Of a DNA stretch of 39,053 nt, positions 11,691 to 38,140 are shown piece by piece. Each line of letters begins with the position of its first letter. The first letter of the stretch is position 1. The stretch is from Candidatus Micrarchaeota archaeon. GTDB lineage: Archaea > Micrarchaeota > Micrarchaeia > Micrarchaeales > CABMGC01. The position numbers and the translations under genes were made by a program. The DNA lies in NCBI GenBank assembly GCA_021809925.1, contig JAJZJV010000003.1, positions 1-39,053 of the forward strand, given 5' to 3'. The notes under the pieces are model-generated. The model had not been told where the DNA came from. It saw nothing but the letters and a program-made list of their open reading frames with translations, and did not search any database.

Positions 11691-11785
11691 TAGCTCCAGC
11701 CAGATTCGAACTGGCGTCAACGGGTTCAGAACCCGTTATCCTTATATGTCTGCATTGGATGCAGAGACCACTAGACGATGGAGCT
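11691..11785 (-). tRNA. tRNA-Gln (anticodon CUG) with a ~22-nt intron in the D-arm region
   Basis: Reverse complement: AGCUCCA UC GUCU AGUGGU[CUCUGCAUCCAAUGCAGACAUAU]AA GGAU A ACGGG UUCUGAA CCCGU UGAC GCCAG UUCGAAU CUGGC UGGAGCU A. The acceptor stem (7 bp), anticodon stem (5 bp) and T-arm are all perfect. The extra sequence contains a 7-bp hairpin. Confidence 0.85.
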
Positions 11786-12599: not shown

Positions 12600-12611
12600 G
12601 CGTTGTCTCAA

Positions 12612-13673: not shown

Positions 13674-14662
13674 CCTTTTTCCATTGTTAGCTTATTTCTC
13701 TTCATTGATGGATATATCATAATCTTTATTACAGGATCTGGTATTCTTATCAACACGCTTAAAACAGACTTCTCAGCAATGTTCATTGCAGTATTCTTAC
13801 CTATAAGCTCCTTATAAAAGCGTATTTTATCTGGGTTTTGTATTTTATTTATACAGGCTATTCCAACCATGCTATATACTGGAAGTGTTCCGACATGTTT
13901 TAGAATAGAATCAGAATAAAGCGACCTCAACTCCTCAAGAGCTTTTGGAAATGAATACATCCAGATTTCAAATTCTTTTCCACCAAGATTCGACAAATTC
14001 CTATATTTGATAAGAGGCTCTGAGATAAATTTTCCCCGTTTTCCAACAATGCTCCTAAAGAATAATGTCATATGGAGGTAATCTTTGTTTGATAGGTCTT
14101 CGCTCTTAATCTTACTGAACTCTTCTTTAAGATACTCTCCTCTTGTTATTATCGACCCCATGAATCCGGCATAGCCATCAGTTGCATTTACCAATACCTT
14201 CTCATGCTCACCTTGAAGATACACTTTATCTTTACTTTCCTTAATCTTTCGTTCTATGAGTATCTTAGAAAAATCATTGTTCCATATCTCAGAGTTTATC
14301 TGAAGAAAGTCATAATCCGATATTTCCTTGACTATCTTGTCTACCGCACCTTCTTTCATCAGATCGTCATCTCCGAAGAGCCAGACAAACTCTGTATTTA
14401 TCATAGCAAGCAAGCTTACCAGGTTGGCTGCATAGGTGTTCCCAAGTCCAGAATCATTCTTTTTATAATAGATATCTGCATACTCTTCCTTTAGCTGTTT
14501 TATCAAAGCTTCGGTCTCGCCTCCCTTGCTATTATCTGAAATAAATACAGGGAAGCCGTAGTTCTTCAACTGCGGCATGATACTTCTAAGGCATTCTTCA
14601 AGCCTCTCTCGCCTATTATATGTGGGTATGTAAATTCCTAATTTCCTTTGCAAATCTATCAC
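13670..14662 (-). CDS. family-2 glycosyltransferase (paralog of 16057-17013)
   Basis: 330-aa ORF with IYIPTYNRRERLEECLRSI, VFISDNS and LFGDDD. It shares the motif FLQINSEIWNNDFSK with the other GT2 (FLIINSEIWNKDMSK). Confidence 0.8.
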   Translation of the reverse strand: MIDLQRKLGIYIPTYNRRERLEECLRSIMPQLKNYGFPVFISDNSKGGETEALIKQLKEEYADIYYKKNDSGLGNTYAANLVSLLAMINTEFVWLFGDDDLMKEGAVDKIVKEISDYDFLQINSEIWNNDFSKILIERKIKESKDKVYLQGEHEKVLVNATDGYAGFMGSIITRGEYLKEEFSKIKSEDLSNKDYLHMTLFFRSIVGKRGKFISEPLIKYRNLSNLGGKEFEIWMYSFPKALEELRSLYSDSILKHVGTLPVYSMVGIACINKIQNPDKIRFYKELIGKNTAMNIAEKSVLSVLIRIPDPVIKIMIYPSMKRNKLTMEKG

Positions 14663-15334: not shown

Positions 15335-16069
15335 TTACGAAGTCCATATAATACCACTACTACTATTTGCATCATATTGTTTTGTCTTAACGTTAAATCC
15401 TGCACTTATAAGGCATTTGGAGAGTGCATCAAATCCTCGTCTATGGTAATCTATACTTATTTGTTTTAGCTCTTTTAATTCTTCTATTGGTGTATTAAGG
15501 AATATATCATATTCTGAACCTTCACAATCCGATTTAATTATATCCGGATGATATTGTCTAATCACTTCACTCAACGTTGTCTGTTTAGTTTCAATTCCGT
15601 CTGCGGTCTCAGATAATGTTTGTGAACCATTAGTGTATCCATCTGAAAGAGTCATTTTCTTATTTTCCATCCCTATTGCTTCACGTTTAAGAATTATCTT
15701 ATCTTGCATATTATTCAGTCGAATATTCTCTTCTGCGCGATTATATTGATACAGATAAGGCTCATAAGCAATAACTTTTTTGGCTCCTTTATATGCAAAC
15801 AACAATGCCGTATCTCCAATGTTTGCACCAATGTCTAATACTACTTTATTTTTGACATCCAGAAAGTCATATTGCCCATCAAAGAAGTTCTCTCGTAATA
15901 CATAACTGTCATATGCCAAATCTTTTATTGTATCAAATCTAAAACGCATGCCATATTCACGCAACACACCAATACTTGGTATAAATGGCAAGATATACCA
16001 ATTCTCAAAATAACGATAATTAACAGAAATATTTCGCATACCCCACGCAAAACCTCTTATAGAGACCAT
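15335..16069 (-). CDS. FkbM-family SAM-dependent methyltransferase
   Basis: 244-aa ORF with VLDIGANIGDTALLFA (SAM motif I), AYEP, and IKSDCEGSEYDI, which is typical of the FkbM family. Confidence 0.8.
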   Translation of the reverse strand: MVSIRGFAWGMRNISVNYRYFENWYILPFIPSIGVLREYGMRFRFDTIKDLAYDSYVLRENFFDGQYDFLDVKNKVVLDIGANIGDTALLFAYKGAKKVIAYEPYLYQYNRAEENIRLNNMQDKIILKREAIGMENKKMTLSDGYTNGSQTLSETADGIETKQTTLSEVIRQYHPDIIKSDCEGSEYDIFLNTPIEELKELKQISIDYHRRGFDALSKCLISAGFNVKTKQYDANSSSGIIWTS

Positions 16070-17013
16070 CTTATCACAATAATTTTTTTATACATAAATG
16101 TTATTATATCAAGAATCCCCACCGGAAGCAGTGCAGCAAATGTAATTATCAATTTTTTTATGTTATCTTCTTTTAATTGATTAATATATTTAATATAATA
16201 ACTAAAAGGGTGTCTTTTTGCTTTTTTCGAAGCTCTTATTGCTCTAACATACTCTACAATTGGTAATTTGGGTGTTTTAGAATAACCTTTAAGCATAGCA
16301 AATACTTCATGCGATTGTATATATATTAAATCCATAATTCTACTATCCCAACTTCCGTTTTCGCCACGTATTTTTAAAAGACACTTCGATATCAACTTAC
16401 CTGTTAGACCTACTATTCCGTTATAAAATAGTAATGTGTGTGGATAGTTCTTGCCTGCATCTGTTCTCAAGGAATCTTTATTAAGTATAAGCTGATCCAT
16501 TATTACATCTCTTCTTATTACCATGCTACCCATATACAAAGAATAGCTGCCAACATCTTTTAATATTTTTTGATGCTCCCCTCTTTTATAAAGGCGATCT
16601 TCGGAGATCTTTAATGTATTATTTCCATTATGTTTTGACATGTCTTTATTCCATATCTCTGAATTTATTATAAGAAAATCATTTCCTAATAGATTACCTA
16701 ATATCTCCTCTATTGCATTCTTCATTGGAACATCATCATCACCCAGGAGCCAAACATATCTACCTGACGACATAACTAATGTTTTCTTGACATTTTCATA
16801 ATATCCAAGATTCTTTGAATTTCTATTATACTTTAAATTTGTGTGATGTTTCTGTAACTCTTTTACAACATTCTCTGTTCTATCTACAGAAGCATTATCA
16901 GATACGCATATTTCAATATTTTCTGAACAGATATTATCAAGTAATTGCACAAGCTCTTCTGCTCTATTGTGCGTGGGTATGCATATTGAAAGCATTGGTC
17001 GAGTCACGAGCAT
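16057..17013 (-). CDS. family-2 glycosyltransferase (paralog of 13670-14662)
   Basis: 318-aa ORF with LSICIPTHNRAEELVQLLDNI, ICVSDNASVDRT and LLGDDD. It overlaps the downstream methyltransferase start by 13 nt. Confidence 0.8.
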   Translation of the reverse strand: MLVTRPMLSICIPTHNRAEELVQLLDNICSENIEICVSDNASVDRTENVVKELQKHHTNLKYNRNSKNLGYYENVKKTLVMSSGRYVWLLGDDDVPMKNAIEEILGNLLGNDFLIINSEIWNKDMSKHNGNNTLKISEDRLYKRGEHQKILKDVGSYSLYMGSMVIRRDVIMDQLILNKDSLRTDAGKNYPHTLLFYNGIVGLTGKLISKCLLKIRGENGSWDSRIMDLIYIQSHEVFAMLKGYSKTPKLPIVEYVRAIRASKKAKRHPFSYYIKYINQLKEDNIKKLIITFAALLPVGILDIITFMYKKIIVIRWSL

Positions 17014-17085: not shown

Positions 17086-18325
17086 TTAGGGAACTTGACA
17101 TTTACATTCTAACACCTCGTCAAGATCAAACCCCTCACATCACGTACCTTATTGCGTAGGCGAGAAAGACGCGAATCGAGATTTCTTTCATACCTGCTAT
17201 GTCCAATAAATTAGCAACAATAGGTTTACGGTAACCCAACACTTTCTGAGCCACGATTTACATTGTGATGAACATATCCAGTGTGTTTGTCTTCATCACA
17301 ACTTCTTTCTCTACGTTGATTCTCTTCTTTGAGAATACGCATTCTCCGAATTCTCTCTTGTAACGAGAGTAGAATCCTTCAACATCCCATCTTTTCCATG
17401 ACCATTTTCCTTTCTCCATCTGTCTTGCATTGCCTTCTTTTGACGTGCATCTAAGTTACGCAGCCAGTTCGGAGGTCTTCCCCTCGCAGTTTCCTGTAGA
17501 TTCCAAATTGCTCTCTTACTGCATCGCTTCTTGCACTTAATCCCTTCAATGATGCATAGATTTGACAGGCACAATTGCCTCCAATCCGTGCTTCTTGCAA
17601 TATTCAAAATCAGCATTCGTGTCACATGCTCCGTCTGCGTCAACTTTTCCTACAATATTTGAGATAGGATCGACGAGAGGCACGGATTCCCTACGGTCTC
17701 CAACATTGTCTTTTGTTATTATGATGTTCACATCCTCTCCTGTATTCTCATTTACTCCTGCATGAAACTTCGCCCAGGATTTTATCTTTTTGTACTTCTT
17801 CGTCCTATACTCTCCGTAATTAACGAGTTTGAGATCTGTAGAATCAACTGCAATGTTTATTCTCTTCCCATTTGCAGGAACGTTGAACTTCGCTTATTGC
17901 TTTTCCATCTTGTTTATTCTCCATCAAAACGTCCTGAAATCAGGCATCGAGAAGTTTAAGAACCTGCACATGTCCTCAATAAAACCCTGCAGTTGACGAT
18001 ATCCCAAACGAAGCGTGCAATTTATTCCAAAACCTATCTGGATTATTGTATTTGGATACTTGTAGGATCTGCCATGCTTCTTTTTATTCAATTCTATTAC
18101 TTCCTCTTTCCAGTTCAGCCCAGCTTCTTTCAAGAATATGGTTACTATTCTGCCCTTGTTTACCAACTGATGGTTATACAAACCCTAATTCAGATGTTTC
18201 TCGTACATGCTGATCGCAAATAGGTATATACGTCGTGGGTTTTTATGGCCATGGTGTTTAGGAGAAGAAGGATTATTGGACACAGCACACTAGACGGAAA
18301 GATTCTTAATTTGTCAAGTCCCTAA
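17086..18325. mobile_element. IS5-family insertion sequence, decayed (~1.24 kb)
   Basis: Imperfect terminal inverted repeats: TTAGGGAACTTGACA (17086-17100) and TGTCAAGTCCCTAA (18312-18325). They bracket a frameshifted DDE transposase gene. I found no clean target duplication. Confidence 0.65.
17258..18181 (-). pseudogene. IS5-family DDE transposase, broken into at least 4 reading-frame segments
   Basis: N-terminal piece: YNHQLVNKGRIV..GRSYKYPNTII..LGYRQLQGF..MPDFRTF. Middle piece in another frame: IAVDSTDLKL ... VDADGACDTNADFEYCKKHG. C-terminal piece in a third frame: KRWDVEGFYSRYKREFGECVFSKK. Confidence 0.75.
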
Positions 18326-18381
18326 CTATTAATTAAATTATTGTGATCTAACATACTTTTATCGATTCACGGTGCGCAAAT

Positions 18382-19323
18382 ATGGAGAAAGTACTGATTA
18401 CTGGAGTTACGGGATTTATTGGAAGACATGTCGCTGCAAAGCTTGCTGAAAAAGGATATGAGGTCCACAGCATAGAGCGATATGTCACTGGAAGATATAC
18501 TATAGACAGCAAGAAAATAATGACACATTATGCTAATCTTACTGATTATCCTGCAATAAAGCACATAGTCAGGGGTGTAAAGCCTGACTATTGCATGCAC
18601 ATCGCTGCGATATCTCCTGTTGCATTCGGATACGAACATTTCATAGAAGTGACCGAGACCAATTATCTTGCAACAATGAATCTCGCAGAATCCTGTTATA
18701 GAGATGTTCCTTATTTCAAGCAGTTCATATTTGCAGGCACGAGCGAAGAATATGGGATGACTCTTACTGATAGGAACTCCTTTCTAACAGAGGAATCTGA
18801 GCTTCATCCAAATAGCCCATATGCGATAGCTAAAGTTGCCTCGGATCTCTATCTAAGATATATGAATGAGGCTTATGACTTCCCATGCACGATACTGAGA
18901 CCATTTAATACTTATGGGAGGACTGACAACAAGCATTTCTTCATTGAGAGAACAATAACACAAATGCTGGAAGGAAAGAATGTTTATCTTGGTTCAAAAG
19001 ATGCTGTTAGAGACTGGATGTATTTGGATGACCATGTTGATGCATACATTAAAAGCCTTGGCAATGAGAAAGCCATCGGCGAAGTAATTCAAGTATGTAC
19101 TGGAAAAGGCTATACTACTGAAGAAACAGCTAATATTATAGCCAATCTTGTCGGATTTGAAGGCGAAGTAGTATGGAACAGCACACAGATACGCCCTTTG
19201 GATGCAAAAGTTCTTATTGGGGATAATTCAAAGGCAAAGAAAATACTCGGATGGGAGCCGCGCTATCAGTTAGAAGAAGGACTTAAAAAGACAATCGACC
19301 ACTGGAGAAAAGCTCAGAGTTAA
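18382..19323 (+). CDS. NAD-dependent epimerase/dehydratase (extended SDR)
   Basis: 313-aa ORF with VLITGVTGFIGRHV (GxxGxxG), GTSEEYG, and SPYAIAKVASD (YxxxK). Confidence 0.85.
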   Translation: MEKVLITGVTGFIGRHVAAKLAEKGYEVHSIERYVTGRYTIDSKKIMTHYANLTDYPAIKHIVRGVKPDYCMHIAAISPVAFGYEHFIEVTETNYLATMNLAESCYRDVPYFKQFIFAGTSEEYGMTLTDRNSFLTEESELHPNSPYAIAKVASDLYLRYMNEAYDFPCTILRPFNTYGRTDNKHFFIERTITQMLEGKNVYLGSKDAVRDWMYLDDHVDAYIKSLGNEKAIGEVIQVCTGKGYTTEETANIIANLVGFEGEVVWNSTQIRPLDAKVLIGDNSKAKKILGWEPRYQLEEGLKKTIDHWRKAQS

Positions 19324-19441
19324 ACAGGGTAATACGTTATCAAATCTCTATTTTTGCAGCGTAATCTTTATTGGATTTTTGCAAATATCTCTCCACGCCC
19401 TTTAAGATGTATTCCATAACTTATCCCTGTTTTATATAACA

Positions 19442-20476
19442 CTACTTCTTAATAAAATCCACCACTCTATCTGCAGAATATGCTTTCATCCCTCCGCCAT
19501 TCTTGAAGAACGAATCAAACCAGAGTGCGGTTTGTTTCACAGATTCCTCAAAGCTCATTTTCGGCTTCCAATTCAGTTTTGTTCTTGATTTAGTGGAATC
19601 AAGCAGGAGCAGTTCTTCCTCCAACCTTTTCTCTGGTCTCTTTATCTCATATTTCATGTTCCAGTGCATAGAGAATTCCTTCACCAGGTCGAGAACCGTT
19701 TTAGTCTCGTTTGCTGAGAAATTCCAAGCGCCAGAATATCCTTTTGGATCATGGTAAAGATTCTCGCATAAAATAAGATAACCATTAATTACATCAAGGA
19801 CATTGGACCATGGCCTTATTGATTCTGGATTTTTTATGATAAGTTTGGTTCTTTCTTTTTTGGCATTTACTATATCCGTAATTATTCTTCTTTCTCCCCA
19901 GTCTCCCCCTCCAATAATATTTCCGGCTCTGGCAGTAGCAACTCCTGCACCAGTAAAGAAACTTTCCTCATATGCTTTGGTTATCAGTTCTGAACAGGCT
20001 TTGCTAGAGCTGTATGGATCATTCCCTCCTAGTTTATCTTCTTCTACATATGGTTCTTTTCTATTCAGATTCTCATAAACCTTGTCTGTAGTCACATTTA
20101 TTATTACCTTAACCGCAGCTTCTTTACGCGAAGCCTCCAGTAAATTTAGTGTTCCAACCACATTTGTAGTATAAGTATCTAGAGGATTCTCATATGATCT
20201 GAGCAATATCGGCTGCGCTGCGAGATGCAATATAATCTCTGGTTTATGCTCTTTTATTGCGTCTGATATCTCTTTCCCATTTCTGATATCTCCTTTTATA
20301 TTAGTAATATTTTTTTCAATGCCGAGCAATTCATAGTGGGAAGGATTTGATGGTGGATTAAGGGAAAATCCAACAACATCTGCCTCAAGCATATTCAACC
20401 ATAGCGTTACCCAGGAGCCAACAAAACCCGTATGTCCTGTTATAAGTACTCTCTTATTCTTGAAAAATGAGCTCAA
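19442..20476 (-). CDS. rfbG: CDP-glucose 4,6-dehydratase
   Basis: 344-aa ORF with FFKNKRVLITGHTGFVGSWVTLWL, LHLAAQPILLRSYENPLDTYTTNVVGT and YSSSKACSE, the characteristic RfbG pattern. Confidence 0.85.
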   Translation of the reverse strand: MSSFFKNKRVLITGHTGFVGSWVTLWLNMLEADVVGFSLNPPSNPSHYELLGIEKNITNIKGDIRNGKEISDAIKEHKPEIILHLAAQPILLRSYENPLDTYTTNVVGTLNLLEASRKEAAVKVIINVTTDKVYENLNRKEPYVEEDKLGGNDPYSSSKACSELITKAYEESFFTGAGVATARAGNIIGGGDWGERRIITDIVNAKKERTKLIIKNPESIRPWSNVLDVINGYLILCENLYHDPKGYSGAWNFSANETKTVLDLVKEFSMHWNMKYEIKRPEKRLEEELLLLDSTKSRTKLNWKPKMSFEESVKQTALWFDSFFKNGGGMKAYSADRVVDFIKK

Positions 20477-21396
20477 GCAATAACCTCCTTTATTTTTTCA
20501 TACATCTTCTCTGCTGTAAGTCCATACCTATCCAACAGATAATCTCTGCTTCCAGAGATATGTACAAACTCGTCAGGAAGCGAGAACTTAAGGACCTTGG
20601 AATCAATTCCCGTAATCGAGGATGCAACTTTGTCAAACAAAGCTCCGGTGCTATCCTCAATAGTCACAACCAAGCTCTTGCCTTCTGCAGCAGATACGAT
20701 GGCAGGATAATCAAAAGGCTTCAATGTATGTATTTCCATAACTTCCACCGATCCTCCATCATTATCTAGCATATCTGCAAGCGCCATTGCTGCTCTAGTC
20801 ATGATTCCTGTCGATACAATAAGTATCTTGTCACCATCCCTAAGCCTTAGCGCTTTTCCTATCTTTATAGAACTATATTTTCCATGCTCTATATTTGGCT
20901 CGTTTTTTGCAAGGCGCATATAAACTGGTTTTTTGAAATCTTCCAGATGTTTCATAAACATCTCAACTTCTTTTGGGTCCGACGGGCTAAGAATTGTGAG
21001 ATTAGGTATAGCATCAGCTACTTTCAAATCCTCAAAAGGCAGGTGCGTAGATCCTGCGTCAGAGTACGCCAACCCCGCACCAACTCCTATCAATCTGACA
21101 GGAAGGTTATGGTAACATATGTCATTTCTTACCTGTTCGAATGGCCTATACAATAAGAAAGGTATAATTGAATATACAAAGACTTTTTTACCAGCAAGAG
21201 CCAAACCTGCAGATACCCCAATCATATTTTGCTCCGATATTCCTGCATTTATAAATTTGTCCGGATGCCTTTCCTTTATCGGCTCGAATACTGAGAATCC
21301 AAGGTCGCCTGTGATTAGATATGTATCATTCTTCTTATTCTCTCTCTCGAGATCCATTATCTCAAGCAAACTTTTTGCGAATGCTTTTCTCATCAT
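20473..21396 (-). CDS. transketolase, C-terminal (pyrimidine-binding plus C-terminal domain) subunit
   Basis: 307-aa ORF with FINAGISEQNMIGVSAGLA and GSTHLPFEDL. It has 4-nt overlaps with both neighbouring genes. Confidence 0.85.
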   Translation of the reverse strand: MMRKAFAKSLLEIMDLERENKKNDTYLITGDLGFSVFEPIKERHPDKFINAGISEQNMIGVSAGLALAGKKVFVYSIIPFLLYRPFEQVRNDICYHNLPVRLIGVGAGLAYSDAGSTHLPFEDLKVADAIPNLTILSPSDPKEVEMFMKHLEDFKKPVYMRLAKNEPNIEHGKYSSIKIGKALRLRDGDKILIVSTGIMTRAAMALADMLDNDGGSVEVMEIHTLKPFDYPAIVSAAEGKSLVVTIEDSTGALFDKVASSITGIDSKVLKFSLPDEFVHISGSRDYLLDRYGLTAEKMYEKIKEVIA

Positions 21397-22172
21397 AACT
21401 CCTCATCAAACTCCTCAATCTGTTCTTTTGTCGGAGGCCTGTAGTGCGACTCGAGCCTGTCTTCCATAGACTTAACTCCTTTCCCAAGCACAGTGTGTGC
21501 TACTATTAGCAAAGGGCCTTCATTTTTTGCTTCAAAGACTCTTATGATACTTTCATAATCATGCCCATCTATTTCAACCACATTCCATCCCGCAGCAGCG
21601 AATTCTTCTTTAATTCTTTCTTCTCCAAGCAATGTTCTATCAAAGGCTTGCCATTTATTACTGTCAACAATAGCAATTAGACTTTTAATCTTGTTTATTC
21701 CTACAAAATTCATGGCTTCTAGCGTGCTACCTTCCTGGCATTCACCATCACTCAATAACACATAAACTTTCCCTTTTTCTTTATTCCGTTCCTTCGAAAG
21801 TGCAATTCCTGCAGCTACAGAGAGCCCGTGTCCGAGAGATCCTGTAGCAATTTCAATGCCTTCTGTACCATATAATGGATGCTCTCCAAGACGAGATCCA
21901 TCTTTTCCTAACGAGTCATACGTATTGTCATCAATGATTCTCTTTTTGTGAAGCACAGAGTACAAAGCTAGTGCAGAGTGGCCCTTGCTAAGCACAAATC
22001 TGTCATCATCACCCATTATCTCAAAGTGCAGAGCGATTAGTATATCCAAACAGGAAAGGTCTGAACCTATGTGGGCAATTTTACTCTCATTGTGCTTAAT
22101 GAGCAAATCTTTTCTAAGTTCCTTTGAGAGTGCTTTTAGCTCATCCGCGCTTTTCATTTTCAGGTCCCTCAT
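21393..22172 (-). CDS. transketolase, N-terminal (ThDP diphosphate-binding) subunit
   Basis: 259-aa ORF with HIGSDLSCLDIL, LSKGHSALALY, TGSLGHGL, and the ThDP motif LLSDGECQEGS..EA. Confidence 0.85.
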   Translation of the reverse strand: MRDLKMKSADELKALSKELRKDLLIKHNESKIAHIGSDLSCLDILIALHFEIMGDDDRFVLSKGHSALALYSVLHKKRIIDDNTYDSLGKDGSRLGEHPLYGTEGIEIATGSLGHGLSVAAGIALSKERNKEKGKVYVLLSDGECQEGSTLEAMNFVGINKIKSLIAIVDSNKWQAFDRTLLGEERIKEEFAAAGWNVVEIDGHDYESIIRVFEAKNEGPLLIVAHTVLGKGVKSMEDRLESHYRPPTKEQIEEFDEEL

Positions 22173-23064
22173 AAAGTGCTATATTCTTCTCCATCCATCT
22201 CTTTGTCTTCTCTAATCCGTCTTTTAATGTTGTTTCTGGGATCCACCCGATCTCTTTTTTGATCTTTGTTATATCTGCTTGCCATACTCTCTCTTTTTCA
22301 GGTTCTCTATCCTCATTATCCCATACTGCATCTACGCCAAGCATCTTAACAACTTCCGATATCTTGCTCTGGAGCCCTGATCCAACATTGAATATCTCTC
22401 CGCTCTCAATATTATCCCTATTCTTTATTACTTTTTCATAAGCTCTCGAGACATCCTCTACAAAGACAAAATCCCTCACATTCTCAGGGTTTGACAGTTT
22501 TGCTCTCTCTCTTTTTATCAGAGAATATAGCAATGTTGGTATCAGCCTATGTTTTTCTTCATAATAACCATAAACGGAGAACAAGCGCAGAGTAGCTACC
22601 TTCCCCGTAGATTTTCTTAAACGTAACAAGTTAGATACGAGGGCCTTTGACATTGCGTAATCTGTACTTGGTTCTAACGTGTCAGTTTCCTTCATGGGCT
22701 TCTTCTTTAGCCCATACTCCGAGCTGCTTCCAGTATTTATAAACAAAGATATGTTTTCGGACGCATCAAGCAGATTAAGAGTTCCAAGTATATTGGTTTT
22801 TATGGCCTTCTCGGTATCTTTCTCAAAGTGATAGCCACCATACACTGCGCAATGAATCAAGACGTCTGGTTTTAATTTTTTAAGCATGTCTATTGTCTTG
22901 CCTCTATTGCAAATATCAAGATATTCTACATTTATCCCTTCCGTTCTCCAGTTACCTACTGATCTCGTCAAGCCTACGACTTCATTATCCTTGCCAAGGT
23001 GCTTAGCAACGTTTGAACCCACAAACCCTGATGCTCCTGTTACTACTATCTTCAAACTTTCCAT
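22141..23064 (-). CDS. NAD(P)-dependent epimerase/reductase (extended SDR)
   Basis: 307-aa ORF with IVVTGASGFVGSNVAKHL, GSSSEYG and DYAMSKALVS (YxxxK). It overlaps both the upstream and downstream genes. Confidence 0.85.
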   Translation of the reverse strand: MESLKIVVTGASGFVGSNVAKHLGKDNEVVGLTRSVGNWRTEGINVEYLDICNRGKTIDMLKKLKPDVLIHCAVYGGYHFEKDTEKAIKTNILGTLNLLDASENISLFINTGSSSEYGLKKKPMKETDTLEPSTDYAMSKALVSNLLRLRKSTGKVATLRLFSVYGYYEEKHRLIPTLLYSLIKRERAKLSNPENVRDFVFVEDVSRAYEKVIKNRDNIESGEIFNVGSGLQSKISEVVKMLGVDAVWDNEDREPEKERVWQADITKIKKEIGWIPETTLKDGLEKTKRWMEKNIALYEGPENEKRG

Positions 23065-23822
23065 ACATCTGCCACTCTTTCTCTTTTTTCCAAGATCTTT
23101 TCCAGGTCTTTCTTATCTTTCAGCGTGTCAACGCATTTCCAAAATCCTTCGTATTTATATGCACAAAGCTCTCCATCTTCAGAAAGCTGTTGCAGAGGGA
23201 AGGTCTCAAATGGCATTTCATCTCCTTCTATATACTTCAGAACTTTCTTTGACAAGACCATATAACCGCCATTTATGAATGGGCTCCGTTCAAGACGTTT
23301 CTCCTGGAAGGAAGTTACAAGGTCTCCATCCATCTCTAAGATCCCGAACCTAGGCATCCTCACGGCAGTCAGCGTCGCCATTTTTCCGTGCTTATTGTGG
23401 AAATCCAGTAATTTCTTTATATTAATGTCAGAAACGCCATCTCCGTAAGTCAGCATGAATGTATCGTCTTTAATATACTCCGCAGCCCGCTTTATCCTAC
23501 CTCCTGTCATCGTGTCAATTCCTGTATCAACAACCGTTACTTTCCAGTCAGGGGCATTTTTCTTTAATGTCTCGACTTTACCTGTGGAAACGTCAACCTT
23601 AAAGTCGTCGGAAGCCATGGAAAGACTTGCGAAATAGCTTTTTATCTTCTCTGATTTGTATCCTGCTGCAATCACGAAGTCATTAAATCCCCAATAGGCA
23701 TATGTCTTCATAATGTACCATAAAAGCGGCTTTCCAGCTATCTCAATCAAGGGTTTCGGGACTAAGGATGTCTCTTCGCTCAATCTGGTTCCGTATCCTC
23801 CTGCAAGTATTACGACTTTCAT
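23052..23822 (-). CDS. rfbF: glucose-1-phosphate cytidylyltransferase-like sugar nucleotidyltransferase
   Basis: 256-aa ORF with MKVVILAGGYGTRLSEETSLVPKPLIEIAGKPLLWYIMK.Y...GFNDFVIAAGYK, the RfbF signature. Confidence 0.8.
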   Translation of the reverse strand: MKVVILAGGYGTRLSEETSLVPKPLIEIAGKPLLWYIMKTYAYWGFNDFVIAAGYKSEKIKSYFASLSMASDDFKVDVSTGKVETLKKNAPDWKVTVVDTGIDTMTGGRIKRAAEYIKDDTFMLTYGDGVSDINIKKLLDFHNKHGKMATLTAVRMPRFGILEMDGDLVTSFQEKRLERSPFINGGYMVLSKKVLKYIEGDEMPFETFPLQQLSEDGELCAYKYEGFWKCVDTLKDKKDLEKILEKRERVADVWKV

Positions 23823-23949
23823 CTATATCACTCAAACATGAGAACCTTAATATCATGGCGTTAATATAATAAATATAGTAAGATATATTATGCTTATAGC
23901 CGCATAAAGAAGGTTTTAAACTCAAAAACTAATCAGCACAGTGGTGTCT

Positions 23950-24507
23950 ATGGAGCTTAAAGATGTTGAGAAGTACATAAACGATGGCATAAAAGCAAGA
24001 TCCGGGATAGATCCGAAACAAGTTCTAGACGTTGGGAAAGAGATAGGACGCAGGATGCTTGAAGGAAAGAAATTGATATTGTGTGGAAATGGGGGAAGCG
24101 CAGCAGACGCGCAGCACATAGCTGCAGAATTCGTGTGCAAATTCAAGAAGGAGCGGAAGGCATTGCCTGCATTTGCGCTTCATACAAACACATCAACAAT
24201 AACGGCAATAGGCAATGATTATAGCTATGATAACATATACGAGAGGCAGATAGAGGCGTTTGCATCTGCTGGCGATATCGTGATAGGGATCTCGACAAGC
24301 GGCAATTCTATAAACGTAATAAAAGCGATAGAAAAGGCCAATAAACTTGGATGCCTTACTATAGCATTCACAAGCAAGAGTGGGGGCAAGCTCAAAGAAA
24401 AGGCAAGCATTGTATTCAGCATAGATAGCAATGACACCCCAATAGTGCAAGAATCCTATCTTGCTGTGGGCCATATGCTGTCTCAGATCGTTGAGGATAT
24501 GGTATGA
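23950..24507 (+). CDS. gmhA: phosphoheptose (sedoheptulose-7-phosphate) isomerase, SIS domain
   Basis: LCGNGGSAADAQHIAAEF, AL.TN.S..TAIGNDY and GISTSGNS. ATG at 23950 is preferred over the GTG at 23941. Confidence 0.85.
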   Translation: MELKDVEKYINDGIKARSGIDPKQVLDVGKEIGRRMLEGKKLILCGNGGSAADAQHIAAEFVCKFKKERKALPAFALHTNTSTITAIGNDYSYDNIYERQIEAFASAGDIVIGISTSGNSINVIKAIEKANKLGCLTIAFTSKSGGKLKEKASIVFSIDSNDTPIVQESYLAVGHMLSQIVEDMV

Positions 24508-25022
24508 AGCCTGCCTTGTTTCTGGACAGAGACGGAACCATAAATATTGATTGTCCTTACTGCAGAAATGCAGATGAGATACATATATATGAGGATATCT
24601 TCGAACCGCTAGCGAAGCTGTCTAAAGATTTCTATATAATAATACTTACCAACCAGTCTGGCTTGGCCAGAGGCTACTTTACGGAAAAAGATCTGGAAGA
24701 CATGCACATCAAAATACGGAAAGAAGTGGAAGAGCGGGGAGGAAGGATCGATGCTTTCTATTTCTGCCCAGATCTTCCAGACATGGGTTCAAAGTGCAGA
24801 AAGCCAAACACCGGCATGCTGGATCGGGCCATGAACGATTTTGACATAGACAAGGATGGATCCTTTGTTATAGGCAACAGCGATTCCGACATCGAACTTG
24901 GAGATAGGGCAGGAATAAGGGCCATCCGGGTAAGAGAAGAAGGGAATACCGGCAGAAACGGTTTTTATGCTAAGGATTTTTATGAAGTATTAAATATTAT
25001 AATCAAGGAAGAGAGGAAATAA
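24504..25022 (+). CDS. gmhB: D-glycero-D-manno-heptose 1,7-bisphosphate phosphatase (HAD-IIIA)
   Basis: 172-aa ORF with LFLDRDGTIN (DxDGT), LTNQSG, CRKPN.GM and GNSDSD. It overlaps the gmhA stop by 4 nt. Confidence 0.8.
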   Translation: MKPALFLDRDGTINIDCPYCRNADEIHIYEDIFEPLAKLSKDFYIIILTNQSGLARGYFTEKDLEDMHIKIRKEVEERGGRIDAFYFCPDLPDMGSKCRKPNTGMLDRAMNDFDIDKDGSFVIGNSDSDIELGDRAGIRAIRVREEGNTGRNGFYAKDFYEVLNIIIKEERK

Positions 25023-25041
25023 AAAATGGATAAGTGATAGC

Positions 25042-25968
25042 ATGGTTGAGATAAGCGGTAAAAACATAATAGTAACTGGTGGTAGCGGTTTCATAGGCAG
25101 CAATCTCGTAGAGAGGCTCTGCAAGGACAATAAGGTTCATGTAATAGACAATATGCATACTGGTTCCAAGAAGAACCTATACGAAGCGATGAAATCCGGC
25201 AATGTAACACTTCACGAAAGCGATGTAAAAAACATCGGCAAACTCGGAATACATGCAGATCTGATATTCCATCTTGGAATGTACTCCGCATCTCCGATGT
25301 ACAGAGAGAACCCCCATCTTGTCAGCGAAGTTGTTGACGGGATGATCAGCGTCCTTGAGTATGCTAAGGCAAATAAGGTGCAGGTTGTGCTTGCATCCAC
25401 CTCTTCGATATACAATGGCATAAATCCGCCACACAAGGAAGATATAGTTCCAAAGGTCACTGATTATTATACTGAGGCAAGAATAGCAGCAGAACGCCTA
25501 TCAGAGCTTTACTCTAAATTACATGGGGTAAATGTTGCTGCAATGCGATTCTTCTCAATATATGGAAGGCACGAGGAATCAAAGAAGGGATATGCAAACC
25601 TCATTACACAATTCATCTGGGCGATGAGGAAAGGGGAGAGCCCCGTAATCTACGGCGATGGGAAGCAGAAGAGGGATTTTGTCTACGTCTCTGATGTTGT
25701 TGAAGCATTGATAAAAGGAACTGCGGTAAAGGGCTTTCTGGTAATTAATGTCGGGACAGGAAAGAATTATACCATAAATGAGATGGTAGAAAAGATAAAT
25801 TCAGCCCTAGGGACAAACGTGCCTCCAAAATACATCGCCATGCCTGTCTCAAATTATGTGATGGAGACGCTTGCAGATACAACAAAGGCTGAAAGATTGA
25901 TAGGCTTCAAAGCCAGCGTCTCATTAGATGATGGGATAAGGCGAATAATCAAAGAGGAAGGGCAATGA
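25042..25968 (+). CDS. NAD-dependent sugar epimerase/dehydratase family (extended SDR) with an atypical YxxxR catalytic motif
   Basis: 308-aa ORF with IIVTGGSGFIGSNLVERL and ASTSSIYNG. The expected YxxxK reads YTEAR (Y143, R147; codon AGA at 25480-25482). Confidence 0.8.
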   Translation: MVEISGKNIIVTGGSGFIGSNLVERLCKDNKVHVIDNMHTGSKKNLYEAMKSGNVTLHESDVKNIGKLGIHADLIFHLGMYSASPMYRENPHLVSEVVDGMISVLEYAKANKVQVVLASTSSIYNGINPPHKEDIVPKVTDYYTEARIAAERLSELYSKLHGVNVAAMRFFSIYGRHEESKKGYANLITQFIWAMRKGESPVIYGDGKQKRDFVYVSDVVEALIKGTAVKGFLVINVGTGKNYTINEMVEKINSALGTNVPPKYIAMPVSNYVMETLADTTKAERLIGFKASVSLDDGIRRIIKEEGQ

Positions 25969-26969
25969 AAGAGCATCCAGCAAAGAGAAGGATGATAATG
26001 TCAAAGACGCCACTGAGAATAACCTTCGTTGGGGGCGGAACGGATCTGTCTCAATATTATTCTTCATACGGCACTGGGTGCGTAATATCTGCAGCGATCA
26101 ACAAATACATTTATGTACTTGTGCACAAAGCTTTCGACAATAAAACAAGGGTCAGGTACTCCAAGACTGAGATAGTGGACAACATAGAAGACATAGAGCA
26201 CCCTACGGTAAGGGAAGCGCTTAAGCTCTTGGAGATCACTGATGGGATAGATATAAACGTAGTTGCAGACATCACTGATGGGGGCACTGGCCTTGGATCA
26301 AGCAGCGCTTTCCTAGTAGGATTGCTCAATGCGTTGCATGCGTGGAAAGGAGAGTATATTGGAGCTACACGGCTGGCTGAAGAAGCTGTGCTTATAGAAC
26401 GAGGAATTCTCAAGGAGCCTGGCGGAAAGCAGGATCAGTACATAGCCGCGCTTGGCGGAATACAGTTCTTGGAGTTCAATAAAGATGAAACCGTAGTCAA
26501 CACCCCAATAATAATGTATGAAGAGAGCAGGCGCAGGCTGGAAGAGAGCCTACTTTTCATGTATACTGGAAAGCAGAGGAAGTCTACAGAGATACTCAAA
26601 AAGCAGTCCGCAGACATCTCTGCGCACATTGCCTCTTATAATAAGATGGCTTCACTGGCCAGCGAAATGTTCACAAGTCTGATAGATAACAGATGGATTG
26701 ATACTGGGAAGTATCTGCATGAGAATTGGCTGCTGAAAAGAACCCTAAGCGAAGGCATAAGCAACGAATGGATAGATTCCATATACGATAGAGCCATGGA
26801 CTCAGGTGCACTTGGAGGAAAGCTTATCGGCGCAGGTGCTGGTGGTTTCATGCTCTTCTTCGCCCCTTCAGATAAGCACGAAGAGATAATTCGGGCTCTC
26901 CCGGAACTAAAGCAGGAGCCATTTGAGTTTGAGGCGTTGGGAAGCAGGATAATATATATTGGGGACTGA
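25965..26969 (+). CDS. hddA: GHMP-family sugar kinase, D-glycero-D-manno-heptose 7-phosphate kinase-like
   Basis: 334-aa ORF with TPLRITFVGGGTDL, GTGLGSSSAF (GHMP motif II) and GGKLIGAGAGGF (motif III). It overlaps the SDR stop by 4 nt. Confidence 0.8.
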   Translation: MKEHPAKRRMIMSKTPLRITFVGGGTDLSQYYSSYGTGCVISAAINKYIYVLVHKAFDNKTRVRYSKTEIVDNIEDIEHPTVREALKLLEITDGIDINVVADITDGGTGLGSSSAFLVGLLNALHAWKGEYIGATRLAEEAVLIERGILKEPGGKQDQYIAALGGIQFLEFNKDETVVNTPIIMYEESRRRLEESLLFMYTGKQRKSTEILKKQSADISAHIASYNKMASLASEMFTSLIDNRWIDTGKYLHENWLLKRTLSEGISNEWIDSIYDRAMDSGALGGKLIGAGAGGFMLFFAPSDKHEEIIRALPELKQEPFEFEALGSRIIYIGD

Positions 26970-27047
26970 GCCTGCAGAGTTCTTTCGCCCTCCAAACCAC
27001 CCCTCAGGTTAAATATTTTTCATGCCAAAAGCGAATCAGGTATTAAT

Positions 27048-27266
27048 ATGGCATTGAATATAAAATCAGAGGAAAAGACCACGACTCGCCAGAGAGCATT
27101 CATAATGTCGCATCAAGGAGGGAAAAGAACAGATGCCAGCATACTCGGCATAAATCCAAGGGATGCGGTTCTTATTGCAGCAGTCAGGAGCGGTGCTCCT
27201 TTGCGCGATGTCATGGCCGCACTGTCAAGAGTTGACGAAGGTGCGTGCTTCACCCGCATTGTATAA
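27048..27266 (+). CDS. hypothetical small protein (72 aa)
   Basis: The only evidence is an ATG-initiated ORF in an otherwise non-coding gap upstream of the 16S gene. No motif is recognised. Confidence 0.3.
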   Translation: MALNIKSEEKTTTRQRAFIMSHQGGKRTDASILGINPRDAVLIAAVRSGAPLRDVMAALSRVDEGACFTRIV

Positions 27267-27428
27267 GATCTTCAAATCCATCTTATATACCTTTATATGC
27301 ATATTTATTATCAGGCTTTGCGGCAAGGTGCGAGATTAACTTTTTCTTCCCACAACTCTGCAAGAAGGTATTTAAGCTTATTGTTGCAAAGTAATAGAAC
27401 ATAGCATTGCTATTGTATCGTATCTTAA

Positions 27429-27442
27429 AAGGTATATTTACA
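27429..27442 (+). promoter_or_regulatory. candidate 16S rRNA promoter (BRE/TATA-like AAAGGTATATTTAC)
   Basis: An A-rich stretch plus TATATTTA lies about 45 nt upstream of the processing stem. A similar box, AAGGTATTTAAG, occurs near 27365-27376, so these may be tandem promoters. Confidence 0.3.
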
Positions 27443-27484
27443 TCTTAGCTTGCTATTCATGAAAATTCCTGATGGAATTAGATA

Positions 27485-27515
27485 TAGTCTTGAGGAGTGC
27501 AAAGAGGCTCGCAGT
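27485..27515 (+). promoter_or_regulatory. 5' strand of the pre-16S processing stem
   Basis: TAGTCTTGAGGA pairs perfectly with TCCTCAAGACTA at 29593-29604. GAGGC/CGCAG pairs with CTGCG/GCCTC at 29571-29583, with bulges. This fits a bulge-helix-bulge-like excision stem. Confidence 0.65.
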
Positions 27516-28594
27516 AATTGCTTTACGCGGATACTTCCGCAGATTCCAGTCGATGCTGCTGGAGGACACCGCTATCAGATTTCGACAGCCATGCAAGTCT
27601 ACCCAGTGACTTCACTGGGTGGCGTACGGCTCAGTAACGCGTGGTCAATCTACCGCAGAGAAGGGGATAACCTTGGGAAACTGAGGACAATACCCTATAG
27701 GCTAAGTGCTCTGGAAGGAGCGTTAGCTTAAAGTGGATGCGAATTGGAGCATTTCAGCTCTGCGATGAGACTGCGTCGGATCAGGCAGATGGCGGGGTAA
27801 CGGCCCACCATACCTTTGACCTGTAGGGGATATGAAAGTATAAGCCCCGAGAAGGGCACTGAGACAAGGGCCCTAGCGCTACGGCGTGCAGCAGGCGCGA
27901 AAACTCCACAATGCGCGAAAGCGTGATGGGGGGAGTCTGAGTGGCACACTTTTAGTGTACCTTTTGCTAAGTCTAGACAGCTTGGCGAATAAGTGCTGGG
28001 TAAGTCCGGTGGCAGCCGCCACGGTAATACCGGCGGCACAAGTGGTGTTCACGATTATTGGGCTTAAAGAGTCCGTAGCTGGCCGAAACCGTCTTATGTG
28101 AAATATTGGTGCTTAACATCAATGCGTGCATAAGATACCTTTCGGCTAGGGAGCGGGAGAGGTCAAGAGTACTCATGGGGTAGGAGTAAAATCTTTTAAT
28201 CCTATGAGGACTACCGGTGGCGAAGGCGCTTGACCAGAACGCATCCGACAGTGAGTGACGAAGGCTAGGAGAACGAATCGGATTAGATACCCGAGTAGCC
28301 CTAGCAGTAAATTATGCAGACTTTAGGTGTTGCGCCTATCACGAATGGGTGCAGTACCGTAGGAAAACTGTTAAGTCTGCCGCCTGGGGAGTACGGCCGC
28401 AAGGTTGAAACTTAAAGCAATTGGCGGGGGAGCACACAAGGGGTGGATGCTACGGTTTAATTGAATTCAACGTCGGGAATATTACCTGGAGCGACGGCAG
28501 GATGATGGTCAGGCTAACGACCTTACCAGACGAGCCGAGAGGTGGTGCATGGCGATCGTCAGTTCGTGGTGTGAACTCTCCGGTTAAGTCCGGT

Positions 28595-29086
28595 ATGCTT
28601 TCGTGTGATTCTATGAAAACAATGCTAAAGCCAAAAATATGTTATATGGTTGGGCTCTTCTCAAAGAACTTGGGAGAGAACAATGCCATAGGGATTAGAA
28701 CCAACCTTAAAGAAGTGGAGGAACGCTTCATAGAGACAGCTATAAAAGAGCTCTCTATAGAACCAAGCAAGATCCTTTTCAGGGATGGAGATGTATTTTT
28801 CTATCACTCAAGGATCTACAAGCAATTTCTTGATATAATCAAGAGAGAGACTAAGATCTTTAAGACCGAAAACGAGCTTTCAAAGAGCTACGTTGCAGGT
28901 CTTTTCGATGCTGCTGGTTCTATTAAAAGAAGCGGAGTCCATATTAAGGGAATGAATCCCAGCGATGAGCTTATGTTAGAGGAGCTCGGAATCCACACGA
29001 ACGGAGGAAGAGTCTTGAACATAAGCAAGTTTTTCATGCTTATGAAGGGCTATAGCATTTTGTTGGAGATAACACGATTGCCCGGT
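28595..29086 (+). other. 16S rRNA intron (insertion near E. coli position ~1092-1096); boundaries +/- ~5 nt
   Basis: The conserved GGTTAAGTCCGG at 28581-28594 only continues as (T)ACGAACGAGACTC at 29087 onward. TCGTGT near the 5' end can pair with ACACGA near the 3' end, and CCGG occurs at both junctions. Confidence 0.75.
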
Positions 29087-29107
29087 TACGAACGAGACTC
29101 TCACTGA
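28613..29107 (+). CDS. intron-encoded LAGLIDADG-family protein, probably catalytically degenerate
   Basis: 164 aa counted from the ATG at 28613. Motif 2 reads YVAGLFDAAGSI and motif 1 reads YMVGLFSKNLGE. The stop lies about 20 nt inside the downstream exon. Confidence 0.7.
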   Translation: MKTMLKPKICYMVGLFSKNLGENNAIGIRTNLKEVEERFIETAIKELSIEPSKILFRDGDVFFYHSRIYKQFLDIIKRETKIFKTENELSKSYVAGLFDAAGSIKRSGVHIKGMNPSDELMLEELGIHTNGGRVLNISKFFMLMKGYSILLEITRLPGYERDSH

Positions 29108-29361
29108 CCGTTGCCAGCAGTCTAGAGATAGACTGGGCACTCAGTTGGGACCGCCTGCGTTTAAGCAGGAGGAAGGAGAGAGCAACGGTACGTCAGTATG
29201 CCCCAAATCTTCAGGGCCACACGCGGCATACAGAGGTTGGTACAATGGGTTGCAACTCAGAGATGGGAAGCTAATCCCCCAAAACCAACCAAAGTTCGGA
29301 TTGAGGATTGAAACTCATCCTCATGAAGCTGGAATCCCTAGTAATCGCTTGTCATCATCGA

Positions 29362-29397
<36 letters not shown>

Positions 29398-29570
29398 TGT
29401 CAAGTCATCCAAATGAGGCTCTAGTGAGGCAGTATCTATGATATTTTCGAACTAGAGTTTCGTAAGGAGGGCTAAGTCATAACAAGGTATCCGTAGGGGA
29501 ACCTGCGGATAGATCACCTCACAAACTTCACTTGAAGTATTGTAACCTAATAATGATTGTGTGCAAAATG

Positions 29571-29628: not shown

Positions 29629-29739
29629 AAATCTTTTATCTCGCAAGAATAGAAAGCTTTTTAAATTTTTCTTAAAAAAAGAGTAATCTTTAAATATGAT
29701 ATTTTACTCTAACATATTACAATTCCTAATGTGATATCA

Positions 29740-34359: not shown

Positions 34360-34424
34360 AGTGGCGTGCCGTAGCCCCTCTTCTGTTTTAGGTGACATTA
34401 GACTTAGCGGCATTTTGCCTTGCA
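34360..34424. repeat. 65-bp direct repeat, copy 2 (the 3' end of the intact RNase P RNA gene)
   Basis: See copy 1. This copy is contiguous with the rest of the RNA gene. Confidence 0.9.
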
Positions 34425-34594: not shown

Positions 34595-34629
34595 TATTAT
34601 TATATTACTTATCCTACTATTTAATTATT

Positions 34630-38071: not shown

Positions 38072-38140
38072 GTGGCATCCTCCAACGACTAAAGGTCGTT
38101 GGCTTCCAGGGTGGCTATGATTGGTCGTCATTATGCCACC
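38072..38140 (-). ncRNA. structured IS605-type right-end region / candidate omega (re)RNA scaffold of the TnpB gene
   Basis: There is a perfect 8-bp hairpin CCAACGAC-TAAAG-GTCGTTGG (38082-38102). It is enclosed by GTGGCAT (38072-38078) pairing with ATGCCAC (38134-38140). The region straddles the tnpB stop codon. Confidence 0.35.

Follow-up and report, generated by a model that had tools for sequence, protein, structure and literature searches.

Genetic organization of the cassette

The DNA analysed here is a stretch of 39,053 nucleotides (hereafter the window) of contig JAJZJV010000003.1, assembly GCA_021809925.1. Its host is a Micrarchaeota archaeon, a member of the DPANN archaea; the locus was matched by mine-drainage metagenomes, and the HMG-CoA reductase encoded in the window shares 55-67% identity with proteins from Candidatus Micrarchaeota metagenome-assembled genomes (MAGs). 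The element in question is a cassette of five minus-strand genes which encode, in order, RfbF, an extended short-chain dehydrogenase/reductase (SDR) named SDR2, the two subunits (TK-N and TK-C) of a transketolase (TK)-like enzyme dependent on thiamine diphosphate (ThDP), and RfbG (Table 1). The five genes had been named in a sequence-only reading of this DNA; all five open reading frames (ORFs) are present, and their assignments agree with the Pfam matches and, for RfbF and RfbG, with scores past the NCBIfam equivalog cut-offs.

RfbF matched TIGR02623 over its full length (1-254) with 316.2 bits (equivalog cut-off 300.25). Since this is only 16 bits over the cut-off, its sugar-1-phosphate specificity is regarded as putative. 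RfbG scored 408.8 bits on TIGR02622 (equivalog cut-off 278.45) with residues 4-341 covered, and PF00456, PF02779 and PF02780 were all matched above their gathering scores across TK-N and TK-C. The translation of SDR2 shows a GxxGxxG motif, a run of serines and a YAMSK motif, and the enzyme has a Ser/Tyr/Lys triad; its nearest structures are a GalE-type epimerase and a GDP-6-deoxy-4-hexulose reductase, both weak matches (approximately 82 bits). The sequence GLTRS follows strand beta-2 without the acidic residue typical of NAD-specific SDRs, a hint of low weight that the enzyme may use NADPH.

Measured on the longest ORFs, consecutive genes overlap by 13, 32, 4 and 4 nt in gene order; these are the values of the sequence-only reading, which had listed them along the plus strand. 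The figure of 32 nt is probably too large, because GAGGGA precedes the second ATG of TK-N (22157) and gene callers on five public contigs start TK-N from this codon (254 aa); the first ATG has no ribosome-binding-like sequence. TK-C, too, was started from its second ATG (306 aa) by the gene callers on public contigs. With the gene-caller starts the overlaps become 13, 17, 1 and 4 nt, and the genes abut or overlap either way, an overlap of 17 nt between SDR2 and TK-N and one of 1-4 nt between TK-N and TK-C being the more likely values. The TTG start of rfbG has a Shine-Dalgarno-like sequence, AAGGAGGT, just upstream. A scan for promoters and terminators inside the cassette gave matches at chance level only, the consensus used being bacterial and uninformative for an archaeon.

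No homologue of the E1/RfbH type was found in the 39-kb window by tblastn with two DegT proteins or by Pfam scans of its ORFs, and the ORF scans showed no E3 gene, second transketolase or further nucleotidyltransferase there. The pair E1 and E3 beside rfbF and rfbG, which the 3,6-dideoxyhexoses (ascarylose, abequose, tyvelose, and also yersiniose) require, is therefore missing from the window, and the earlier statement that the classical 3,6-dideoxy route is not encoded was borne out for this stretch of DNA.

Sequence features of the transketolase subunits

The nearest structures were 6YAK for TK-N (E 3e-39) and 6YAJ for TK-C (E 2e-41), both of the Carboxydothermus split transketolase, followed by human TK, DXS and PDH-E1. 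Scores on NF004559 were 197.5 bits for TK-N and 147.2 bits for TK-C; as the model spans a whole transketolase, which here is divided over two genes, values below its cut-off of 488 are to be expected. The catalytic set is kept, comprising the equivalents of yeast His30, His69, His103, His263 and His481, the cofactor-activating Glu418 and the ThDP/Mg ligands. Conserved motifs of the pair are AHIGS, SKGH, GEHP, ESHY, GSTH and ISEQNM; TK-C keeps the Glu of ISEQNM together with Arg3, Ser35 and His118, and the ThDP motif reads SDG...N and not GDG...N, with its Asp and Asn conserved. With its catalytic histidines, cofactor Glu and ThDP-binding Asp and Asn all in place, the pair is expected to form an active enzyme.

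In the transketolases of yeast, E. coli and human, the equivalents of His469, Asp477 and Arg528 position the aldose-phosphate acceptor by its phosphate and its C2-hydroxyl. Residue-by-residue alignment placed Gly106, Ala114 and Lys164 of TK-C at these positions, respectively. The equivalents of Arg359 and Ser386 (yeast numbering) are retained, and three of the five residues of the sugar-phosphate channel set are thus changed. Relative to canonical transketolases, one residue is also missing after the Ser386 equivalent, one is inserted near the C-terminus and, in TK-N, His115 occupies a position where canonical enzymes typically have Gln (GSLGQG to GSLGHG). The changes at His469, Asp477 and Arg528, taken with Ile at the equivalent of E. 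coli Phe434 (Eco-Phe434), would be expected to produce a roomier and different acceptor site.

Distribution and phylogeny

The order NTP-transferase, SDR, TK-N, TK-C and RfbG-like gene is common to five other archaeal lineages in which the flanking genes are unrelated. Identity of their TK-N to that of the window is 62% (L006, a Micrarchaeota MAG), 81% (L089), 59% (L091), 57% (L253) and 55% (L254), and an rfbF-type gene comes first in six of the six archaeal cassettes. Recurrence of the five-gene order in five lineages at 55-81% TK-N identity indicates that the arrangement is not due to chance. Two more archaeal contigs (L009 and L011) carry the SDR, TK-N, TK-C and RfbG-like genes with no adjacent cytidylyltransferase.

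Alignment of C-subunits gave two clean groups. The first, to which the cassette belongs and which is termed group A, has the motif G-x-G-x-G-x-x-Y-x-x-x-G-x-T-H, and the canonical group has A-T-H-A-G-x-x-V-G-E-D-G-x-S-H-Q; a split transketolase of Thermoplasmatota (L067) falls in the canonical group. Species-representative genomes were scanned with a degenerate DNA pattern built on the group-A motif, which yielded at least 120 loci, and all of the matches listed were TK-N/TK-C pairs. These were distributed over Acidobacteriota, Chloroflexota, Planctomycetota, Proteobacteria, Bacillota, Actinomycetota, phyla of the candidate phyla radiation (CPR) and others. Group-A pairs were seen in CPR MAGs (L102, L105 and L106; Saccharibacteria, Berkelbacteria and Moraniibacteriota) and, among DPANN, in the window. 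No DNA match to an enterobacterial group-A pair was found in E. coli genomes, and group A could therefore not be tied to any O-antigen whose structure is known.

For comparison, a canonical control set was assembled by a single-protein scan of species genomes; it consists mostly of split or fused transketolases with at most 42% identity. The Asp477 equivalent is Leu, Ala or Met in group A (here and below, among the matches listed) and Asp in 89% of the canonical set; at the Arg528 position, 77% of group A has Lys and 100% of the canonical set has Arg. Ile occupies the Eco-Phe434 position in 95% of group A, and GSLGQG of canonical TK-N is GSLGHG. None of these four differences was imposed by the DNA pattern. 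A homologue on a Streptomyces plasmid (L256) has lost His469 and Asp477 and kept Arg528.

In a neighbour-joining tree group A formed one clade, apart from canonical split and fused transketolases, and its subclades track genomic context: the archaeal cassette, bacterial rfbF/rfbG loci, loci with gmhA and an SDR, and loci with an SDR or an SDR-GT2 protein. When the signature motif was masked, the four closest cassettes grouped together in 100% of bootstrap replicates and the six archaeal modules in 95%; the whole of group A was recovered as one clade in 46/100. The placement of the enzyme against pentose phosphate pathway (PPP) transketolases, on which the earlier proposal had been made to depend, separates it from the canonical enzymes, the Thermoplasmatota split transketolase included, with a bootstrap for the whole group of only 46%.

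Genomic context and gene fusions

Extended sugar-nucleotide SDRs were encoded within 3 kb at 67/118 group-A loci and at 0/64 canonical loci (Fisher p = 2.5e-17). In a Pfam census of the immediate upstream and downstream neighbours, SDRs accounted for 24/100 and 20/111, respectively, and GT2 glycosyltransferases for 20; methyltransferases, DegT aminotransferases, radical-SAM/B12 enzymes and zinc-dependent alcohol dehydrogenases were also present. No PPP gene, including transaldolase, occurred among these immediate neighbours. Both in the window and at group-A loci the surrounding genes are glycan genes, and a genomic role in the PPP or in aromatic-precursor supply was not apparent.

Fusions of an SDR to TK-N were identified in Paenibacillus cellulosilyticus (L255, 7097-9004, 635 aa) and P. 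plantiphilus (L142, 4871-6625, 584 aa). In P. cellulosilyticus KACC 14175 the gene order is rfbF, rfbG, an NDP-hexose C-methyltransferase-like gene, the SDR::TK-N fusion, TK-C, a TylF-type O-methyltransferase gene and a glycosyltransferase gene, and in P. plantiphilus the fusion lies downstream of rfbF-rfbG. The fusion partners are relatives of SDR2 and mirror the adjacency of SDR and TK-N in the window. PGAP labels the P. cellulosilyticus fusion merely as 'SDR family NAD(P)-dependent oxidoreductase'. Proteins of approximately 660 aa with an N-terminal SDR and a C-terminal GT2 are encoded directly 3' of TK-C in L098 (3466-5463), L102 (5920-7926), L162 (2144-4132) and L140 (1935-3959); this fusion was confirmed by Pfam in four loci and occurs across several phyla of bacteria, one carrier being a CPR MAG (Moraniibacteriota). 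SDR2-like ORFs longer than 500 aa were present at no fewer than 12 of about 120 group-A loci among the matches listed. The TK-like enzyme and the SDR are inherited, and sometimes fused, as a unit with CDP-glucose genes, and a GT2 gene travels with them.

Heptose genes and the pentose phosphate pathway

A divergent heptose-type operon (Table 1), which the sequence-only reading had passed over, begins 118 nt from rfbF on the opposite strand. Its best NCBIfam matches are below the cut-offs, with 172.9 bits for GmhA (209), 143.9 for GmhB (178) and 156.8 for HddA (600). No HddC was identified in the window apart from the RfbF-like gene; the operon is without a nucleotidyltransferase of its own, and the only one close by belongs to the divergent cassette (RfbF-like). 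Any link between this operon and the cassette is tentative. Within 7-10 kb of the cassette, the five other archaeal lineages carry no heptose genes. The gene gmhA recurs beside another, bacterial subclade of group A, where gmhA, a 4,6-dehydratase-like SDR gene, TK-N and TK-C stand in fixed order (L119, L133, L158, L163 and L202), or in this order with an extra ORF between SDR and TK-N (L117 and L177). The substrate in that subclade may be an NDP-heptose, following the same logic as in the cassette. In the gmhA subclade these four genes are often followed by one for an APH-like kinase or a GSCFA protein.

These genes bear upon the idea that the enzyme is a working sugar-phosphate transketolase, acting either as the sole non-oxidative PPP enzyme or as a supplier of sedoheptulose-7-phosphate to the operon with GmhA, GmhB and HddA-like products. 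The nearness of gmhA to rfbF would fit such a supply, as would the homologues of gmhA, hddA and gmhB near the bacterial subclade and the retention in the enzyme of its catalytic residues together with the equivalents of Arg359 and Ser386; DPANN transketolases are, moreover, usually read as PPP enzymes (PMC8407392). The supply of sedoheptulose-7-phosphate was downgraded, as the five other archaeal cassettes are without heptose genes and the acceptor residues are changed, the equivalents of His469, Asp477 and Arg528 being lost. The remaining evidence points the same way: the canonical split transketolase of Thermoplasmatota lies in the other group, sugar-nucleotide SDRs are absent near canonical loci, the SDR::TK-N fusion sits in a CDP-hexose cluster, and transaldolase and other PPP genes are not among the immediate neighbours. 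A working sugar-phosphate transketolase is therefore considered quite unlikely.

The separate clade, the altered channel residues, the glycan-gene neighbours and the Paenibacillus SDR::TK-N fusion all favour a role in sugar tailoring over a housekeeping one, as had been proposed from the operon structure. It is quite probable, judging by these sequence comparisons, that the group-A enzyme tailors a nucleotide sugar and does not serve the PPP.

Predicted function of the cassette

The cassette is predicted from its equivalog-level matches to encode CDP-glucose formation and 4,6-dehydration. The five genes would form one co-transcribed, translationally coupled cassette for a Micrarchaeota surface glycan, in which RfbF would make CDP-glucose and RfbG would convert this to CDP-4-keto-6-deoxy-D-glucose. 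With a probability of roughly 55%, the ThDP enzyme adds a two-carbon unit to this keto sugar and the SDR then reduces the product, giving a modified CDP-6-deoxyhexose for the surface glycan. The two-subunit enzyme would most likely draw on a ketose phosphate or hydroxypyruvate, carry the ketol unit as dihydroxyethyl-ThDP and pass it to the C-4 carbonyl; the resulting sugar would bear a 4-C-glycolyl branch and a tertiary alcohol. Without His469, Asp477 and Phe434 the site would have space for the pyranose ketone, and the diphosphate could be a ligand of the Arg and Lys that are still present. The adjacent SDR2 would reduce the new side-chain (glycolyl) ketone, after which the co-inherited GT2 (13670-14662) would transfer the sugar, which the FkbM methyltransferase may methylate. 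In this scheme we infer which carbon accepts the unit, which donor supplies it, whether the TK or the SDR acts first, and what is formed.

The nature of the donor is touched by the profile scores. Both subunits also match DXS models (PF13292, 56.6 bits) and, weakly, E1_dh; TK-C reaches 119.6 bits on TIGR00204 against 147 bits on the best TK model, and PGAP calls some relatives 'DXP synthase N-terminal domain-containing protein'. A pyruvate donor, used in the manner of DXS or PDH-E1, would deliver a hydroxyethyl or acetyl unit to C-4, and the SDR would then produce a 4-C-(1-hydroxyethyl)-6-deoxyhexose, a 3-hydroxy analogue of yersiniose. Pyruvate is indeed the donor for the known ThDP enzymes of sugar branching, YerE and the alpha-keto acid dehydrogenase-2 type. 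Transfer from pyruvate is nevertheless judged unlikely, though deserving of some weight, as TK models and structures clearly outscore those of DXS and E1 for both subunits and the full histidine set of transketolases that holds the C1-OH of dihydroxyethyl-ThDP is conserved.

A different carbonyl or mode of action is suggested by many bacterial group-A loci that consist of TK-N, TK-C and one SDR (or SDR-GT2), with no recognisable 4,6-dehydratase in the 8-kb stretch covered. There, the carbonyl may be generated by the SDR. Aldehydes are the native acceptors of transketolases, which also cleave alpha-hydroxy ketones, so that the enzyme might extend an aldehyde (the SDR producing an NDP-hexodialdose that becomes an octose) or cleave and re-ligate the 3-hydroxy-4-keto unit by a retro-acyloin reaction, the outcome of which would be epimerisation or ring contraction. 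We know of no precedent for rearrangements of this kind by TK-family enzymes. For the cassette of the window these routes appear very unlikely, because a CDP-glucose 4,6-dehydratase gene is always present in it, directly 3' of TK-C, and the sole ketone of the dehydratase product is at C-4.

Several observations weigh against addition of a two-carbon unit at C-4 followed by reduction. The SDR could act before the TK-like enzyme instead of after it, and ketone acceptance is not on record for any transketolase (PMC12247030). In the open-access full-text literature we found neither a characterised function for the split transketolases of glycan clusters nor a glycan with a 4-C-glycolyl or 1,2-dihydroxyethyl 6-deoxyhexose. 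Arg359 and Ser386 equivalents are kept and Arg528 is replaced by Lys, so that the substrate may yet be phosphorylated. The heptose operon adjoins the cassette and gmhA recurs beside another group-A subclade, a pattern compatible with a sugar-phosphate role there; to this must be added the low bootstrap value of group A as a single clade. Finally, three metatranscriptomes of the same study gave no match over 18000-27500, the locus being matched in DNA runs only.

Comparison with known enzymes

The split transketolase of Carboxydothermus hydrogenoformans (6YAJ/6YAK) has the same fold, two genes in the order N then C, the catalytic His and Glu and the ThDP-binding Asp/Asn in common with the cassette enzyme. 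The latter differs from it and from PPP transketolases at His469, Asp477, Arg528 and Eco-Phe434, in GSLGHG and in the two indels, and its context is glycan biosynthesis and not the PPP. DXS comes next in closeness, both in profile scores and in structure-sequence scores; it too replaces the residue at the His469 position and uses a non-ketose donor, but it is a single chain, and both cassette subunits score higher on TK models.

The proposed chemistry most resembles that of YerE and ErwE in the yersiniose and erwiniose pathways, in which a ThDP-dependent addition at C-4 of a CDP-6-deoxy-4-hexulose from the RfbF/RfbG pathway is followed by ketoreduction (PMC12247030). YerE, however, is a single polypeptide of the decarboxylase (AHAS-like) superfamily which uses 2-keto acids and acts on a 3,6-dideoxy sugar made by E1 and E3, whereas the cassette enzyme is of the TK family, has two subunits and has no E1 or E3 beside it in the window. 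No match to the AHAS/decarboxylase-type Pfam families TPP_enzyme_N, TPP_enzyme_M or TPP_enzyme_C was obtained with either subunit. In the alpha-keto acid dehydrogenase-2 type (aldgamycin; avilamycin AviB1/B2; kibdelomycin KbDH-alpha/beta), two-subunit ThDP enzymes place a C2 branch on deoxy-keto sugars, as is proposed here; they belong to the E1 family and use pyruvate and the dTDP-sugars of antibiotics, and the cassette enzyme scores just 26 bits on E1_dh.

Split transketolase genes also lie inside the keto-sugar tailoring clusters of miharamycin and amipurimycin in Streptomyces, for which transfer of a hydroxyacetyl unit has been proposed (PMC12247030). Those enzymes act in secondary metabolism on the core sugar of a nucleoside, and they are candidate relatives of group A. 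According to the same 2025 review, transfer of hydroxyacetyl to a keto sugar by split-gene transketolases is a proposal, none of them having been characterised in vitro, and its 13 further split-TK candidates are from Streptomycetes only (PMC12247030). A 2026 paper lists a split transketolase between methyltransferase and DegT genes in an exopolysaccharide cluster of Actinoplanes, with no function assigned. The open-access full-text literature yielded no account of group A as a family, of its signature and fusions, or of how widely it occurs.

Archaea generally lack transketolase (PMC8407392), which leaves the statement of the sequence-only reading that split transketolases are common housekeeping enzymes in archaea on shaky ground. 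DPANN transketolases have been counted as PPP enzymes acquired from bacteria (PMC8407392). The cassette enzyme is best filed as a putative case, with predicted chemistry, of ThDP-dependent sugar branching that draws on a third ThDP family and is widespread among surface-glycan clusters. More broadly, and with somewhat less than an even chance of being right as a whole, group A would be a widespread TK-type ThDP family that forms C-C bonds on nucleotide keto sugars in Bacteria and Archaea, including DPANN and CPR; its products would be C-branched or chain-extended sugars of surface glycans, the Micrarchaeota 6-deoxyhexose would be new to archaeal glycans, and many metagenomic calls of PPP transketolases would be wrong.

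If this holds, transketolases would join the YerE-type and E1-type enzymes as the third ThDP family that builds branched sugars, and would be the first to transfer a hydroxylated two-carbon unit (glycolyl) onto a ketone, a reaction sought in biocatalysis (PMC12247030). The surface glycans of DPANN archaea and many bacteria would then contain an unknown sugar, which cultured Paenibacillus could reveal. As a rule for annotation, a split transketolase with G-x-G-x-G-x-x-Y-x-x-x-G-x-T-H and without the His469 and Asp477 equivalents would not be evidence for the PPP. Transketolase calls currently underpin the inference of the PPP in DPANN and CPR genomes (PMC8407392), and for group A these may be wrong.

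Other features of the window

The cassette sits in a glycan island with GT2 genes, an FkbM methyltransferase gene, a second SDR gene, transposase remnants and the divergent heptose-type operon (Table 1).

Table 1. Positions of the cassette genes and of other features in the 39,053-nucleotide window
Feature	Position	Strand	Family match or remark
rfbF, glucose-1-phosphate cytidylyltransferase	23052-23822	-	TIGR02623, PF00483; cassette gene 1
SDR2, extended SDR	22141-23064	-	PF01370, 154 bits; probable NADPH-dependent ketoreductase, predicted transketolase partner
TK-N, transketolase-like ThDP-binding (PP-domain) subunit	21393-22172	-	PF00456, 102 bits; likely start 22157
TK-C, transketolase-like Pyr and C-terminal subunit	20473-21396	-	PF02779 and PF02780; group-A signature
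rfbG, CDP-glucose 4,6-dehydratase	19442-20476	-	TIGR02622; last cassette gene; TTG start
Intergenic region rfbF/gmhA	23823-23940		AT-rich, 118 nt, divergent; presumed promoter region of both operons
Heptose-type operon	23941-26969	+	Four genes, as follows
gmhA-like	23941-24507	+	
gmhB-like	24504-25022	+	
SDR of heptose-type operon	25042-25968	+	
GHMP kinase (HddA-like)	25965-26969	+	
SDR18k, second extended SDR	18382-19323	+	PF16363, 208 bits; convergent with rfbG; probable accessory epimerase/reductase
Transposase remnants, DDE fragment	17311-18181	-	Between glycosyltransferase genes and cassette
Second GT2 glycosyltransferase of glycan cluster	16057-17013	-	PF00535, 81.6 bits
FkbM-family methyltransferase	15335-16069	-	PF05050; recurs with module
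GT2 glycosyltransferase	13670-14662	-	PF00535; likely transferase for cassette product
GT2-like protein	12603-13673	+	Weak PF00535; recurs with cassette
tRNA	11691-11751	-	Weak in Rfam (31.7 bits)
HMG-CoA reductase	2143-3354		
Archaeal 16S rRNA gene	27543-29522	+	Span 1980 nt
228-aa ORF inside 16S rRNA gene	28421-29107		
618-aa Ala/Ser-rich ORF	29731-31587	+	No family match
AbiEii toxin-family gene	32697-33458	-	
Archaeal RNase P RNA	34360-34595	-	95.8 bits (above gathering)
BofA-like ORF	34546-34935		
OrfB_IS605/TnpB-like gene	38131-38880	-	Short (249 aa)

The nearest structure to SDR18k is the GalE-type 4ZRM (151 bits), and its orthologues (61-67% identity) adjoin the cassette in L006, L011 and L253. 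An orthologue of the GT2 at 13670-14662 is located directly 3' of rfbG in L006 (51%), L091 (44%), L253 (35%) and L011 (32%), and one is also present in L089 (79%). Homologues of the FkbM methyltransferase flank the module in L009 (49%), L091 and L011, and those of the GT2-like protein were found in L006 (39%), L091 (31%), L011 and L254.

The presence of HMG-CoA reductase indicates a mevalonate route, and an isoprenoid context of the methylerythritol phosphate type was not seen around the transketolase genes. Besides the AbiEii toxin-family and TnpB-like genes of the window, AbiEii/AbiEi genes were observed flanking the cassette in L089 and L091 as well. The tRNA had no ARAGORN match, and the RNase P RNA overlaps the start of the BofA-like ORF.

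The 16S rRNA gene matched the full 1478-nt Rfam model and contains an insertion of approximately 500 nt. The ORF of 228 aa inside this gene gave no Pfam match even at E <= 1; a LAGLIDADG-like motif was recognised in it by eye (YVAGLFDAAGSIKRSG), which suggests that it may be an intron-encoded homing endonuclease. The 618-aa ORF lies past the 16S rRNA gene, as it does in L002. In another assembly of the same population (L001, 1-3000) it is replaced by genes for a pyrophosphatase, a low-molecular-weight phosphatase and a peroxiredoxin, which indicates a strain-level rearrangement beside the rRNA gene.

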